From an uncultured delta proteobacterium (GTDB taxonomy: Bacteria > Desulfobacterota > Desulfobacteria > Desulfobacterales > JAHEIW01): a stretch of 64,000 nucleotides of DNA. The notes under the pieces are model-generated. The model saw nothing but the letters and a program-made list of their open reading frames with translations, ran no database searches and was not told the DNA's origin. Shown one piece after another: positions 43,695 to 58,940 of the stretch; the first letter of the stretch is position 1; the number at the start of each line of letters is the position of its first letter. Where the stretch lies: assembly GCA_963706575.1 (NCBI GenBank), contig CAVPNL010000005.1, positions 256,001 to 320,000 on the forward strand, in the 5' to 3' direction. The position numbers were made by a program, and so were the translations under genes.

Positions 43695-43819
43695 ATTTAT
43701 TTTCTTATTTATAAGGTAGCAGCTATGAACCATCCTGCAAACTAGGCGATTGGCATTTAAATTTTCTACTTAAACTCAACAATTATAAATAAACAGAAAT
43801 TTCATTAAAAGGAGGAACC

Positions 43820-44165
43820 ATGTTCAAAAAGATATTTTTAACCATGTTGGCACTTGTTTTTTGTTTTCAGCACCGTGGGGGTCAGCTTTGCGCTGGATAA
43901 AGGCAACAAGCGCAAAGGCAAATACACCTACCGCAAAGTTTACAAGGCCTGTTTTGAGCGCGGAGAGGTTGAATCCAAGGTGCCGCCCATCAGCCCGGCC
44001 GACAAGACCCAGGCGGAGTGGACATCTGTTTTCGAGTCAAAGAAATTTGAGATGTTTGGATGCGATGAAGAGTGGGCACAACTGTCGGAAATTGAAGTTA
44101 CTGATATCTATACGTATTTGCATGATCATGCCTTTGATTCACCCACACCGGCGAAATGCAAATAA
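43820..44165 (+). CDS. Exported cytochrome-c-like protein lacking CXXCH (~114 aa; +1 insertion in T run ~43860)
   Basis: AAGGAGG before ATG 43820; signal peptide; GNKRKGKY.YRK, SP..KTQAEW, YLHDHAFDSPTPAKCK. Confidence 0.65.
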
Positions 44166-44245
44166 CTGCAGGATTCCATCAGGGTCAATTAAAGGAGGGG
44201 GCGTTAATTCCGCTTTCAAACCCATAGAAAATAAAGAAGGAGGTT

Positions 44246-45366
44246 ATGATGCGTTTAACAAAATTGACGGCATTATCTTTTGTGCTCTGCCTAGTTCTGG
44301 CATTCGCTTTTGGATGTGCCGGCACCCAGAAGACAGCCGAGCCGGCCAAAGCCGACTGGCAGTTTCACGACATTGTGGATGTGGGGTTTGTGCAGCCGTA
44401 CGCCACGGTGCCCCAGCCCGAAGGGGTGATGATCATTGATGCGCGGCCCTATCAGCCCAAATACGCCAACGGTCACATTCCCACGGCCATCAGTATTCCG
44501 GACAGCCAGTTTGACAAAATGACCGACAAACTGCCCGAGGATAAGAATGCGCTTCTGATCTTTTATTGCGACGGCCCCACCTGAAAGCTGAGTCACAAAT
44601 CCGCCTGGAAGGCGGAAAAACTGGGTTACAGCAACGTTAAGGTGTTTGCCGCGGGTTTTCCGGCCTGGATGAAAGCCAAAGGCAATTATGCGGCGGTTTC
44701 CGTTGAATACGTGGCCAAACAGGTCGAGTCCAATGCAGGCCATCGTCATCGATTCACGGCCCAAAAAACCCAAGTATGACAAGGGCCATATTCCTTCGGC
44801 CATCAGCATTCCCGACAGCGAGTTTGACAAGCTGCAGGGCAAGTTGCCCCGGGACAGCGAAACACCGCTGATTTTTTACTGTGACGGTTTTACCTGAAAG
44901 TTGAGCCATCAATCCGCCCGGAGGGCGGTCCAGCTGGGCTATACGAATGTCAAGGTGTTTGCCGCGGGCTATCCGGCCTGGAAAAAGGCATACGGTGCAG
45001 CGCCGGCAGCCGTTGCGGTTAAGGCCGGCAGCGCAGAAGGCTCGATCGACATCGCCACCTTTGAAAAGATCATAAAAGAAAATCCGCAGAGCATTATGCT
45101 CATCGATGTGCGCGATCCCGATGAGTTTGCGGCCGGGTCGTTTAAAACCGCCGTTAATATTCCCACCGACGAACTGGAGAAAAAAATTCGCCACCCTGCC
45201 GGCAGATAAACCCATCGTGTTTGTCTGTAACACCGGTGCCAGAAGCGGTGAGGCGTTTTACATGGTCCAGGATATCCGGCCGGAGATGAAAAAGGTCTAT
45301 TACCTGGAAGCTGAAACGATCTATAACAAGGACGGATCGGTTAAGATTACCAAGCCGGCTTCCTAA
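44246..45366 (+). CDS. Three-domain rhodanese lipoprotein, probable double selenoprotein (TGA 44582-44584 and 44895-44897); ~372 aa after removing two +1 insertions (~44736, ~45185)
   Basis: AAGGAGG RBS, lipobox AFGC; LIFYCDGPT-U-KLSHKSA..LGYSNVKVFAAGFPAW and LIFYCDGFT-U-KLSHQSA..LGYTNVKVFAAGYPAW; third domain IVFVCNTGARS. Confidence 0.88.
44600..44616 (+). promoter_or_regulatory. Candidate bacterial SECIS hairpin 1
   Basis: TCCGCCT-GGA-AGGCGGA; G-initiated loop after a 22-nt spacer from TGA. Confidence 0.7.
44914..44928 (+). promoter_or_regulatory. Candidate bacterial SECIS hairpin 2
   Basis: CCGCCC-GGA-GGGCGG; same 22-nt spacing, compensatory T-A to C-G pair relative to hairpin 1. Confidence 0.7.
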
Positions 45367-45400
45367 CGTTTAATTGAATACAAGAATGCATAGAGACGAT

Positions 45401-45429
45401 TGCAGCCGTTCCTTCCGGGGACGGCTGCA
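45401..45429 (+). terminator. Stem-loop after rhodanese gene
   Basis: TGCAGCCGTTCC-TTCCG-GGGACGGCTGCA; no clear U tract. Confidence 0.45.
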
Positions 45430-45460
45430 TTCACTGATAAGCATAGGGGCTTTGCCCCAG

Positions 45461-45580
45461 TTGGAATGATGGAACAATGGAATGTATGGGATAATGGGTT
45501 TAAAAAAACTGAATTCAGAACGGCAAATTAAGCTTCTTTTCTTACCCAGTATTCCAATTTTCCACTATTCCATTATTCCA
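45461..45580. repeat. Short-unit inverted repeat (TGGAA units / TTCCA units)
   Basis: ttggaatgatggaacaatggaatgtatgggataatggg ... cccagtattccaattttccactattccattattcca. Confidence 0.75.
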
Positions 45581-45671
45581 TGTGGCTGACAAAAACAGAT
45601 AGCCACAAAAAGTATTACAATTCCAAAAAGTTATAGAAATTCCGAGACGTTTAATTACAGGGGAGTCAACA

Positions 45672-47322
45672 ATGAAAGCAGTAGAAAAGAAGAATTCTTT
45701 TCTTAAATATATTATCCTGATAATGGCCGGGTTGATGCTGTGGTGTACCGTGTTATTTGCTGCACAGAGCGATGAGAGCCAGGCGCCCGGGCGCACCATG
45801 GCCCAGCAGGCCACCAAGGGCCAAAAGGTCTGGAATACCACCGATCATACCAAACACAAAGCCTTGCAGCAAGGATTTTAAATCCGGCCTGGAGGTCACC
45901 CAGGCCTGTCTTTCCTGTCATTCCGAAGCCGAAGCCCAGTTTCACAAAACCGATTCACTGGACCTGGCTGGCCGATCCGGCGGACAAAAACAAACAGTTC
46001 GGCAAAGCCGGAAATTCTCTCAATAATTTCTGTATTTCAACCAACAAAACCAAAGACAAGGGCTGTCTGTCCTGCCATCCGGGATGGGGCACCTCCAGGG
46101 ATAAGGGGATCAACTGTCTGGTCTGTCACAGTCGAAAAGGAAATGAACTGGGATGAAGCCATGACAGATATCAAGGCTTTTCTCGAAGCCGGCGATGAGG
46201 ATTCGCTGGAAATTGCCAGAGAGATCCAGGCCGAGCTGCGCGAAGCGGCCCAGAGCATGTGGTCGACCCGGCCGCAAAAATTGCGGGTCCTGCCATTTTT
46301 ACGGCGGCGGCGGTGACGGGGTGAAACACGGCGACCTGGATACCTCTCTGGCCAAACCCAATAAGGCCCTGGATGTCCACATGGGCGTCGACGGCCGCAA
46401 TTTTGACTTGTGTGCGCTGTCACACCACCAACCTGCATAATATTGCCGGTCGGGTTTATACACTGCCGGCGGCAGCGGAGCGCAAGAGCCTGGTGGAAGA
46501 TGATTTGGCCTCCAAGATCACCTGCGAATCCTGTCACACCCAGTACGCCCCACAAAGCCGGGTCCAAGGCCAACGATCATACGGACAAGGTGGCCTGCCA
46601 GAGCTGTCATATTCCGGAGTTTGCCCGGGTGAATCCCACCAAGATGTCCTGGGATTGGGCCCAGGCCGGCAGAAAAAAAGACGGCAAAAAATACAAGACC
46701 AAAGACGAGTTCGGCAAATTCGATTATATGACCATCAAGGGTCAGATGAAGTGGGCCAAAAATATCAAACCTGAATATCTCTGGTATAACGGCATCATTA
46801 AATCAGTGACGGCCAAGGATCAAATTGATCCCGGCCAGCCGGTAAAAGTTTCCTGGCCAGAGGGCAGCCGGTTGGATCCCAACGCCCGCATCTATCCGTT
46901 TAAAGTCCATCGCGGCAAACAGCCATACGACAAGGAGCACAATACACTGCTGGTACCGCTGCTGTCCGGCAAAGATGGTTACTGGACGACCCTGGATTGG
47001 AATCGGGCCCTGAGTAAAGGCCAGGAAGCTGTGGATCTGCCTTTTTCAGGCCGGTTTGATTTTGTGGAGACCACCTATGTATTTCCGATTACCCATATGG
47101 TGGCGCCCAAAGAAAACGCCCTGGCCTGCAGCGAGTGCCACAGTCGACAGGACAGCCGTCTGGCGAATCTGGGCGGTTTCTACATGCCCGGGCGGGATCG
47201 GGGTCAATTGGCTCGATATCTTGGGCTGGATCGCTGTGTTAGGCGCTTTAGCCGGGGTGGTTCTGCACGGCGCGGGTCGATTTTTTGCCAACGGCAAAAA
47301 CAACAAAAACAGCGCGAAATAA
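45672..47322 (+). CDS. Octaheme c-type cytochrome, tetrathionate reductase (OTR) family, ~547 aa after removing seven +1 insertions
   Basis: Reconstructed frame has eight CXXCH (CLSCH, CLSCH, CLVCH, CGSCH, CVRCH, CESCH, CQSCH, CSECH) plus IHWTW, NNFC, FYGGGGDGVKHGDLD, DVHMG, HMVAPKE; signal peptide and C-terminal TM anchor. Confidence 0.88.
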
Positions 47323-47362
47323 TTCATCGCCGTAAAAGGCTTGTCCTAATGGAACGCGGTAC

Positions 47363-47403
47363 AAAAAGGGGGTCCGCCCGAGGCGGATTCCCTTTTTTCT
47401 TTT
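47363..47403 (+). terminator. Intrinsic terminator after OTR
   Basis: AAAAAGGGGGTCCGCC-CGA-GGCGGATTCCCTTTTT followed by more T. Confidence 0.75.
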
Positions 47404-47481
47404 CTGCTTGCAGATTTAATCAAATTGGTTCAAAATTAATCCGCCCGTAAACATCTGACCCCGAAGCATGGAAGCTAAAAA

Positions 47482-47889
47482 ATGGGAAAACCAAAAATCC
47501 TGGTGGTGGATGACGAGCGTGACATGCGCATATTTGTCTCGACAGTCGCCGAAACCCTGGGTTTTGAAGCCATTGTTGCCAAAGATGGAGCCGAAGCGCT
47601 GCTGAAGGCGGGTTCGAACCCGCCCGCGCTGGTCATCCTTGATGTCATGATGCCGAAAATCGACGACGGCATCCAAACCTATCGGCAATTTAGAACCGAC
47701 CCAAATCTTTCGCATATACCGATAATCATGCTGTCGGCCATTGCAGAAAAAACCTTCTTGCACTCCATTAAAATGTTAAGCCCCCAGCAAGGCCATCAGC
47801 TGCCCGACCCCGAGGCCTATATGGAAAAACCACCGGATGCAAATGAGCTAAGCCGGCTGATAAGCACGCTGTTACCGGCCGATACTTAA
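47482..47889 (+). CDS. Single-domain response regulator
   Basis: ILVVDDE, LDVMMP, MLSA, EKP. Confidence 0.9.
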   Translation: MGKPKILVVDDERDMRIFVSTVAETLGFEAIVAKDGAEALLKAGSNPPALVILDVMMPKIDDGIQTYRQFRTDPNLSHIPIIMLSAIAEKTFLHSIKMLSPQQGHQLPDPEAYMEKPPDANELSRLISTLLPADT

Positions 47890-56801: not shown

Positions 56802-57461
56802 ATGAACACGATATACAATTTTGTGAGTGGCCCGTTAGCCTGGCTGGCATTTATTCTTTTCATCGGCGGCAGCCTTTACCGGCTCATAAGCCTGATGGTG
56901 CTGGTCCATAAAAAAGAAAAATTTATTTACTCTTACATGAGCTTGAAATACGGCCTGCGTTCCATTCTTCGCTGGAGTACGCCCTTTGCCACCGAAAATA
57001 TGCGAAGGCATCCGGCGTTGACGATCGCCACCTTTGCCTTTCACATCTGCCTGATACTGACGCCGATTTTTTTACTGGCACATGTGACCCTGATCGATGA
57101 ATCCTGGAACCTCAGCTGGTGGACGCTGCCCGACGGTGCGGCGGAGATCATGACCTTGATCGTTATTGCCGCTTGTGTTTTTTTCCTTGTACGGCGCTTG
57201 GTCAATCCGGAAGTTCAATATGTCACCTCAGCATCGGATTATATTATCCTGGGTATCGTGGCGGCACCGTTTATTACCGGATTTTTGGCCTATTACCAGT
57301 GGTTTGGGTATCAGGTATTTCTGATTCTGCATATCCTTTCAGGAGAAGTTATGCTGGTGGCCATTCCGTTTACGCGGTTGAGCCACATGCTGTTTGCACC
57401 GCTGACCCGGGCTTATATGGGCTCGGAATTCGGGGGGATCAGGCATGCTAAAGACTGGTAA
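56802..57461 (+). CDS. tmcC: Tmc complex membrane cytochrome b subunit (NarI-like)
   Basis: GPL.W, FH, H, LHIL, IPFTRLSHM. Confidence 0.85.
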   Translation: MNTIYNFVSGPLAWLAFILFIGGSLYRLISLMVLVHKKEKFIYSYMSLKYGLRSILRWSTPFATENMRRHPALTIATFAFHICLILTPIFLLAHVTLIDESWNLSWWTLPDGAAEIMTLIVIAACVFFLVRRLVNPEVQYVTSASDYIILGIVAAPFITGFLAYYQWFGYQVFLILHILSGEVMLVAIPFTRLSHMLFAPLTRAYMGSEFGGIRHAKDW

Positions 57462-57469
57462 GTGCAAAG

Positions 57470-57569
57470 ATGAATATCGAATATCGAACAAGGAATGTAG
57501 AAGTAAGAAGTATTTTGGTTCGTCAATACTTCGACATTCATAATTCCTTGTTCGGTGTTCTGCGGTTCA
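57470..57569. repeat. Short-unit inverted repeat (GAATATC-like units) inside the tmc operon
   Basis: gaatatcgaatatcgaacaaggaat..gaagtatt / aatacttcgacattcataattccttgttcggtgttc. Confidence 0.75.
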
Positions 57570-57602
57570 ACTAAAACAGATTAAACAAAAGGAATTGAGA
57601 CA

Positions 57603-58940
57603 ATGGCTGAGCCTGCAAAGCAAATTGAAAGGAAAATCGTGGATGAAGGCCTGGAAGTCGGTGTACAAAATCTGACCGAAGAACGGATCACAAAAGTGAT
57701 CAACCGCGTTTTAAAGGGTGAATCCGGCGCGCGCCTCAAAGCCTATGTCAATACCTGTATCCACTGCGGTCTGTGTTCCGAAGCCTGCCACTATTATCTT
57801 TCCCACGATAATAACCCGCAATATTCACCGGTGGGGAAAGTCAAACAAACCCTGTGGGAAATGCTAAAAACCAAAGGCAAAGTCAGTGCCGATTTTATCA
57901 AAAGAGCCTCTCTGATTGCCTCCACGGAGTGCAACGCCTGTAAGCGCTGTGCCATGTATTGTCCCTTTGGAATTGATATCGCCTACATGATGCTTACCGT
58001 AAGGCGCATCTGTCATCTACTGGGCGTAACCCCACTGTATATTCAAGATACGGCCCACAGTCATGCGGTTACCATGAACCAGATGTGGGTCAAAGATGAC
58101 GAGTGGATTGATACCCTGCAGTGGCAGGAAGAAGAGGCCCAGGACGAAATCCCCACCCTGCGGATCCCGCTTGAAAAAGAAGGGGCAGATATCATGTATT
58201 CGGTCATCGGCCCGGAACCCAAATTCCAGGCCCAGCTGATTTATCAGGCCGCGGTCATTATGGATGTGGCCGGTGTCAACTGGACAATGCCTGCCACCCC
58301 CGGCTGGGATAATAGCGATATGGCCATGTATACCGGCGACAATGAAATTATGGGGCGCGTAAAGCGGACTCATTTCGAAACCGCTCTTCGATTAAGGGTT
58401 AAACGGATTGTCATGGGTGAATGCGGCCATGCGTTTCGCTCGGTTTATGATATGGGCAACCGCTGGCTGGGATGGCGCATGCCCCCCATACCCGTCGTGC
58501 ATGCCATTGATTTCTACTATGAATTGATCAAAGACAAAAAGATCACGATTGCTGAAAAATTTAAAGAGCCCGTTACCCTGCACGATCCGTGTAATGTGAT
58601 TAGGGGCGGCGGTCTGGCAGAAAAGGCCCGCTATGTGGTCAATGCCATCTGTGAACAACTGATCGAGATGCACCCCAACCGCGAACACAATTACTGCTGC
58701 TGCGCCGGCGGTGGGGTCATCAATTGCGGGCCGCCTTACAAAAACACCCGCATGGATGGCAACCGCATTAAGGCCGAACAGTTATTTGCGGCCAAATCCA
58801 GGGGCGCCAAGATACTGATCGCGCCCTGTCACAATTGCCACAGCGGCCTTGAAGATATCAACCATCACTATGGCCTCGGTTATGACATTAAATTTATCAG
58901 CGATATTCTTTATGATGTTATGGAAAAGGAGACCGCATGA
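57603..58940 (+). CDS. tmcB: Tmc complex Fe-S subunit (CCG/HdrD-like)
   Basis: [44 protein letters not shown]. Confidence 0.88.

Follow-up and report, generated by a model that had tools for sequence, protein, structure and literature searches.

Predicted double-selenocysteine triple-rhodanese proteins, with SECIS elements that follow their codons, encoded beside octaheme cytochromes in Desulfobacterales

The window, a stretch of 64,000 nucleotides from the genome of an uncultured member of the Desulfobacterales, carries a triple-rhodanese gene at 44246..45366. The gene, its parts and the two neighbouring genes described next lie on the forward strand. Going by its orthologs the product would be about 372 amino acids long, with intact orthologs that contain two in-frame TGA codons ranging from 369 to 386 aa. 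Upstream is the gene of a small exported cytochrome c-like protein that has no CxxCH (43820..44165), with a +1 shift near 43853. Downstream is a cytochrome of the octaheme tetrathionate reductase family (OTR; 45672..47450, 3′ end approximate), which scores over the TIGR04315 cut-off and has its eight CxxCH motifs distributed over three frames. The gap between rhodanese and OTR holds an intergenic repeat (45460-45660) with similar copies on several contigs, and it is skipped in the contigs of relatives. Further along the window (56802-58940), the Tmc electron-transfer complex is represented by TmcC and TmcB, both over their NCBIfam cut-offs, after a cluster of sigma-54 and two-component regulators.

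The preliminary description treated 44246-45366 as one continuous gene. This did not hold for the window copy, which the assembly splits over three frames: the first holds domain 1, the second domain 2 and the beginning of domain 3, and the third the remainder of domain 3. The division results from one extra base near 44736, in the linker between domains 1 and 2 (44734..44738), and one near 45187, within domain 3 (45179..45190), each a single-base +1 shift relative to the orthologs. Approximately ten net +1 shifts span 43853-47198, across the small upstream gene, the rhodanese and OTR, and at eight places among the matches listed the extra bases are absent from relatives' contigs derived from public runs. 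With the coding DNA of the relative G012 as reference (145 kb), the window's genome has 21 net shifts, some of them clustered, of which 16 are net +1; multi-frame genes number 13 of 238. None of the public sequencing runs checked for reads of the window's strain matched (best share 0.28). RNA run X15 covers parts of the locus only as relatives' contigs at 90-95% identity, and so provides no expression evidence for the window's copy.

The frameshifts are probably assembly errors, in the form of long-read insertions, and the double-selenocysteine (double-Sec) orthologs are intact in reading frame. An alternative, which is compatible with the family reading, is that the three-gene cassette is a decaying pseudogene in the window's organism. 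The shift density in the operon, at about 20 times that of the genome sample (some ten frameshifts in 3.35 kb as opposed to 21 in 145 kb elsewhere), would fit decay. So would the distance of the cassette from the activator and cytochrome b that normally accompany it, here placed back to back on contig C6, and an in-frame TAG in the domain 1-2 linker of the close relative G011. This alternative is nevertheless unlikely, as every shift is net +1, the same bias as genome-wide, and both SECIS elements, the three active-site loops and all eight heme motifs are intact. Furthermore, dN/dS of the window copy is not raised (0.09-0.17 against five relatives; 0.11-0.15 among intact relatives), and L014 and L026, which share the upstream context of the window, have intact rhodanese genes.

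The TAG in G011 lies at a variable codon of its double-TGA ortholog (L013), and G011 encodes a PylS scoring over the cut-off. It is either a nonsense mutation or a pyrrolysine codon in a gene whose product would also contain two Sec; it is a single case. The window's genome also has a PylS (G000:C15:118663-119394), which places machinery genes for both Sec and pyrrolysine in the same genome.

The N-terminus of the rhodanese looks exported. A putative signal peptide ending in a lipobox-like AFGC (44246..44317; Cys24) was read from the sequence by eye. The earlier label of lipoprotein is tentative for the window copy: AFGC is non-canonical, and several orthologs, double-Sec forms included, have no lipobox cysteine. 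Its equivalents are LLAGC, VMAGC or LLTGC in some orthologs, with no Cys in others, and a regular expression for the lipobox pattern matched at least 23 of 28 orthologs of the U/U type (Sec in both domains; L074, L077 and L084 were left out of this count). Within the family, a lipid anchor appears to be usual but not essential.

Domain 1 (44423..44674; PF00581, E 3e-15) has the canonical-position Cys codon at 44567-44569 and the Sec codon at 44582-44584. Domain 2 (44745..44990; PF00581) has these codons at 44880-44882 and 44895-44897. Domain 3 (45040..45345, boundaries approximate) retains the normal six-residue loop already reported for it, CNTGARS (45226-45246). In 19 orthologs the canonical Cys of each domain (C105, C209 and C324) and the C-x-TGARS columns of domain 3 are invariant. 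The intact ortholog L010 yields three PF00581 stretches (161 bits), and an AlphaFold model of an ortholog (pLDDT 82.8) has three rhodanese domains, with fold matches to GlpE (Z 13.9), BH2092 (Z 13.3) and Sud (Z 11.8). Foldseek with the whole model returned generic multi-rhodanese matches only, with poor domain packing (TM ~0.25). The loop of domains 1 and 2, C-x-G-x-x-U, is two residues longer than that of domain 3, and the motif UKLS, of the UxxS type, is present in both. The CxxxxU active loops initially proposed are thus there in the form CxGxxU, but the Sec is located five residues past the canonical nucleophile and not at it. It would therefore be a second nucleophile as opposed to a substitute for the usual one.

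The two in-frame TGA codons occupy matching positions, FYCDGPT-TGA-KLS and FYCDGFT-TGA-KLS, and conservation of the protein runs past the site. Each is followed after 22 nt by a GGA loop within the upper stem-loop of a putative SECIS element: CCGCCT-GGA-AGGCGG for SECIS 1 (44601..44615) and CCGCCC-GGA-GGGCGG for SECIS 2 (44914..44928). In 45-nt folds, both hairpins form the upper stem of the minimum free energy (MFE) structure, at -14.8 and -15.9 kcal/mol with z values of -2.46 and -1.03, the latter making folding energy alone weak for hairpin 2. The bSECIS model, as given in the accessible part of PMC13188914, describes a loop of 3-9 nt, a stem of 4-16 bp, a G in the first two loop positions, a spacing of 16-37 nt and an MFE of at most -7.5. 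When checked by hand, both hairpins fell within it (loop GGA, stem 6-7 bp, spacing 22 nt, MFE as above). The genome contains 209,610 TGA triplets, counting both strands. A hairpin with the geometry of the window's accompanies 14 of them, and only two of these have frames open on both sides, namely the two sites in question; since the search pattern was modelled on these sites, the result shows rarity and not independent discovery. An Rfam scan of 43700-47500 gave no match near the gathering score. A loose motif scan for further SECIS elements genome-wide was discarded as far too permissive.

The Sec machinery, without which the recoding proposed earlier would not stand, was found: selA, selB, selD (with TGA) and tRNA-Sec are present in the window's genome, all over curated cut-offs. 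There are two copies of selD (G000:C5:349796-350719 and C3:438965-439886), both with an in-frame TGA, the C3 copy being in two pieces. Across the genomes searched, selB was detected in 26 of 30, including all 17 whose matched rhodanese is all-Cys, which ruled out loss of the Sec machinery as the origin of the Cys forms. Among the 13 TGA-bearing genomes searched, selB was not detected in four (metagenome-assembled genomes, 79-87% complete), and selA was found in all four.

Orthologous segments were collected from 61 related genomes (46 with a match) and from 79 GTDB loci, drawn from the best 80 of 388 confirmed stretches; L033 was left out as the motif was absent. The resulting 208 domain segments reduce to 181 unique ones, the window's two included, and counts describe the closest relatives only. 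Among the matches listed, the codon at the site is TGA in 75 of the 181 and TGC or TGT in 106, with nothing else, neither TAA nor TAG; the Cys opposite TGA that was anticipated from homolog alignment is therefore the state of the latter 106. At the level of the 91 unique genes listed, 31 are U/U, 12 U/C, 2 C/U and 46 C/C. In a sample of 401 genomes from the phylum, 55 had a match; one besides the window has two TGA codons, and many distant matches have one.

The hairpin follows the codon closely. A five-pair stem with a loop G at +23 is present in 73 of the 75 TGA domains and in none of the 106 Cys domains among the matches listed, the two remaining TGA domains missing a stem pair. The same holds within single genes, as in all 16 rows from mixed genes listed the hairpin is on the TGA domain and absent from the Cys domain. 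It was previously proposed that the T-A to C-G swap, which changes WK to RR, pointed to selection on RNA structure. The swap exists in the sequence, but it is poor evidence since it involves the weakest stem position, +22/+26. Among the matches listed, this position is unpaired in 33 of 75 TGA domains, for which it was dropped as main evidence, and is A·A in 30 of the 75, making pairing there optional. As judged from the sequence comparison, the true compensatory signal is instead the synonymous pair +18/+30, which in the TGA domains listed is C-G in 65, T-A in 6, A-T in 2, T-G in 1 and G-A in 1, and is C-G in only 8 of the 106 Cys domains listed. Likewise, among the matches listed, 74 of 75 TGA domains use GCC for the Ala at +19 to +21, as against 55 of 106 Cys domains. 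The stem pairs +19/+29 and +20/+28 are set by invariant Ala codons, in the Cys forms too.

In a quick tree of 79 proteins (best 80 of 388; Sec/Cys site masked), the four states require 13 changes. L084 was excluded from this tree. For domain 1, the phylogenetically independent pairs all point in the same direction (7/7, p 0.016); for domain 2 there are three pairs only and the comparison is underpowered (p 0.5). Partial hairpins persist behind Cys codons in L054, L087 and L095, and a complete one in L147, one of 30 more distant Cys domains, which breaks the perfect correlation. These remnants suggest recent Sec-to-Cys changes. Immediately ahead of the site, Sec domains mostly have Thr (69 of 75) and Cys domains mostly Lys (88 of 106) among the matches listed; compensation of charge for a thiol, or the codon context, may account for this preference.

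Collectively, Cys opposite TGA, the presence of the sel genes and the tracking of SECIS elements both across and within genes indicate that Sec is almost certainly inserted at both TGA codons, as the preliminary description had it. That the TGAs are instead true stops or misread Cys codons, with the hairpins as by-products of a conserved helix sequence, can draw on the error-prone assembly around the gene, the pairs +19/+29 and +20/+28, which invariant Ala codons hold in place in Cys forms as well, and the full hairpin on one Cys domain, but it is largely refuted and highly improbable given the same TGA in 75 unique segments over many genomes among the matches listed, synonymous positions constrained in TGA domains only, and protein conservation extending past a site that never shows TAA or TAG. 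The comparison thus describes what is, on present sequences, a real double-selenoprotein family with unusually clean SECIS evidence.

The gene neighbourhood is conserved. OTR or Phs/Psr-type genes occur at 74 of the 79 ortholog loci (best 80 of 388). By family, and within the same best 80 of 388, these 79 loci contain the small cytochrome c-like protein at 68, OTR at 65, a sigma-54 activator at 49, a PhsC-like cytochrome b at 45, TtrB/NrfC-like and TorD-like proteins at 13 each and a PhsA-like protein at 11. In a second arrangement (16 of 79 loci, best 80 of 388) the rhodanese directly follows genes for a PhsA-like and an Fe-S subunit, beside a TorD chaperone. The loci are mostly from Desulfobacterales, and the Delta 1 and Delta 4 symbionts of Olavius have U/U forms among the matches listed. 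In relatives the activator and cytochrome b flank the cassette. In the window's genome the three middle genes lie in the window, and activator and cytochrome b are on the other contig (G000:C6:946973-949350), about 318 bp apart with nothing between them. No close PhsA ortholog was seen in the window's genome, the best having about 30% identity.

Each part of the exported, double-Sec, triple-domain form adjoining OTR was borne out, with PF00581 domains, an exported-looking N-terminus and an OTR neighbour. OTR adjacency had been singled out as notable. The adjacency itself is confirmed, but OTR is found beside the all-Cys forms as well, and the link is therefore not special to the Sec form. An association of the domain-2 Sec with the Phs-type arrangement (14/30 versus 2/49 among the matches listed) is not claimed, being confounded by kinship. 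The neighbours (OTR, PhsA, PhsC and the small protein) have no internal TGA across loci L044-L122 among the matches listed, and Sec in these proteins was therefore rejected. The small cytochrome c-like family has 58 of 69 listed members without CxxCH and 11 with it, and other Cys are kept, including the C-terminal PAKCK tail; Atlas look-alikes, with the L108 ortholog as query, are monoheme cytochromes c. Locus L075 carries two U/C rhodanese copies with OTR next to each, and the rhodanese match of L084 lies in an open frame of about 1459 codons (TGA read through), possibly a fusion.

While Sec/Cys interchange, SECIS tracking, machinery, fold and neighbourhood come from sequence comparison, function is read from neighbourhood and fold. 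The reading favoured here, with moderate confidence, is that the protein carries sulfane sulfur in the periplasm for the co-encoded sulfur-compound reductase, or acts as its redox partner. The gene would encode a three-domain rhodanese of Desulfobacterales that is exported and usually has a lipid anchor, with Sec inserted by SelB bound to the SECIS downstream of each UGA. The canonical Cys would form a persulfide with sulfane sulfur taken from polysulfide or thiosulfate, and the neighbouring selenolate would cleave S-S bonds or resolve the persulfide through a Cys-S-Se intermediate. The sulfur would then be passed to the periplasmic reductase, or the protein re-reduced by it, the reductase being either OTR, paired with a PhsC-like cytochrome b, or PhsA/PsrA, paired with its Fe-S subunit. 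The mode of action would resemble that of Wolinella Sud, with Sec/Cys pairs added, and Sec would be an optional upgrade, swapped repeatedly with Cys. Nitrite and thiosulfate have both been discussed as candidate physiological substrates of OTR, and the MccSep authors allow for periplasmic sulfur-transfer partners (accessible text of PMC13510729).

A second possibility accepts the Sec but gives domains 1 and 2 another task: instead of carrying sulfur in respiration, they would form a periplasmic thiol/selenol-disulfide redox or detoxification module, acting against oxidant, nitrosative or selenite stress. The loop lengthened by two residues and its additional nucleophile, features shared with BH2092 (CWGPAC) from structural genomics, would suit such a module, as would the thioredoxin-fold gene found in 8 of 79 loci (best 80 of 388), the rhodanese/DsbD-like fusion of the TsoB model, and nitrite, on which OTR also acts (accessible text of PMC13510729). 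This seems doubtful given that domain 3 keeps the invariant sulfurtransferase-type loop and that the PhsA-like/Fe-S/TorD arrangement in 16 of 79 loci (best 80 of 388) points to sulfur-compound reduction. Returning to the sulfur-carrier reading, a bolder extension of it would make the selenium rhodanese the substrate-handling subunit of the OTR module, with OTR acting on protein-bound per- or polysulfide on the Cys/Sec pairs instead of free tetrathionate. This is speculative and on balance improbable. If true, MccSep chemistry would here be divided between two proteins, with Sec on the partner and hemes on the cytochrome, and marine-sediment Desulfobacterales would have a selenium-tuned route for respiring or disproportionating intermediate sulfur species.

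Among known systems, Sud is a periplasmic sulfur supplier that works with Psr. Sud, the polysulfide-sulfur transferase of Wolinella succinogenes (PDB 1QXN), shares the rhodanese fold (Z 11.8) and has a profile match to domain 3 (E 3.7e-6). A comparable case is SbdP of Aquifex aeolicus, a rhodanese sulfur supplier to a respiratory sulfur reductase (accessible parts of PMC6378623 and PMC10507020). Both differ in being single-domain, Cys-only proteins with a canonical loop, whereas the window protein has three domains, two extended Cys/Sec loops and the OTR link. BH2092 of Bacillus halodurans (PDB 3NHV, 3O3W) is the closest solved sequence to domain 1 (E 9.8e-12) and has the same CxGxxC loop, but has one domain with Cys only, and its PDB title gives no function. 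In Geobacter sulfurreducens, ExtH (GSU2940) is a 49 kDa rhodanese-like lipoprotein encoded with a multiheme cytochrome and a cytochrome b (accessible text of PMC5877670), and MccSep reduces polysulfide by Sec/Cys chemistry (likewise PMC13510729). ExtH, compared by description, together with MccSep/ExtKL resembles the present locus in placing a rhodanese-like protein beside a multiheme cytochrome; there the Sec is in the cytochrome, while the present loci have it in the rhodanese, with no internal TGA in the OTRs listed.

Sec-containing rhodaneses were already known, as the preliminary description stated, having been predicted in print (accessible parts of PMC13188914 and of Zhang and Gladyshev 2007). 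As far as its accessible text goes, the latter counts Sec sulfurtransferases in Olavius symbionts and mentions a UxU form, not the CxGxxU double-Sec form. A selenoproteome inventory of 2026 includes five rhodanese selenoprotein forms, all in predicted families (accessible parts of PMC13188914 and PMC9312934). Form 1 has the motif UxxS and one Sec (WP_010941598.1; Table 1 of PMC13188914, seen in part), and form 5, TsoB, is UxxxxU with two Sec in one loop (same partial source). Form 1, likewise predicted only, shares the PF00581 domain and Sec followed by xxS, as in the U-K-L-S of the window. By its partial description it is listed with one Sec, in contrast to two in tandem domains with their own SECIS elements, a state found in the window gene and in 31 of the 91 unique genes among the matches listed. 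The accession WP_010941598.1 is absent from the named matches of the protein searches. Presumably it corresponds to locus tag GSU0930, for which a literature search found no paper.

No NCBIfam rhodanese model reached its cut-off. The best match was TsoB (NF045694; score 107.7, cut-off 805), which is also a two-Sec rhodanese with the same x4 spacing of loop nucleophiles. It differs in its 572-position model, thioredoxin-like C-terminal part and both Sec in one loop, as opposed to CxxxxU twice plus a third rhodanese, and rhodanese domains only, in the window gene. The model rhodanese_LYCAU (NF041203) gave 89.5 bits against a cut-off of 115, and its CxU motif differs. In the accessible literature outside subscription papers, no description of a two-domain double-Sec rhodanese or its OTR link was found, and the accessible parts of PMC1794560, PMC12998232, PMC2702500, PMC5877670, PMC1914089, PMC12013277, PMC5317091 and PMC8780430 contain neither. 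From these sources, UxxS rhodaneses with a single Sec and TsoB with its two Sec have catalogue entries already, and the two-domain double-Sec form was not found described. BSepDB, according to its accessible description, covers GTDB genomes, Olavius Delta 1 among them, and may well hold these double-Sec genes.

Standard gene callers cut genes at TGA codons, and the form is therefore under-annotated in sediment Desulfobacterales and in the symbionts of Olavius (L062, L073). Identity to a double-Sec ortholog stays at or below 70% in all of the 120 best full-length protein matches, whereas DNA loci reach 80-99% among the matches listed. The natural series U/U, U/C, C/U and C/C, mostly in genomes that keep selB, offers a ready test of the benefit of Sec to a sulfurtransferase, and shows SECIS elements arising and decaying together with their codon. 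The conserved rhodanese-OTR link provides a testable partner for OTR.

A longer triple-rhodanese family of about 455-467 aa was also observed, with Sec forms (L034, L035, L168) and Cys forms (L162, L163, L170). Its members have an N-terminal extension that is absent from the window gene and frequently a single CxxCH; the Sec forms carry one Sec, with loop and SECIS geometry like those of the window gene. The single-Sec members may be form 1 of the inventory. In public protein sets the longer family is mostly represented by a 250-aa C-terminal fragment.
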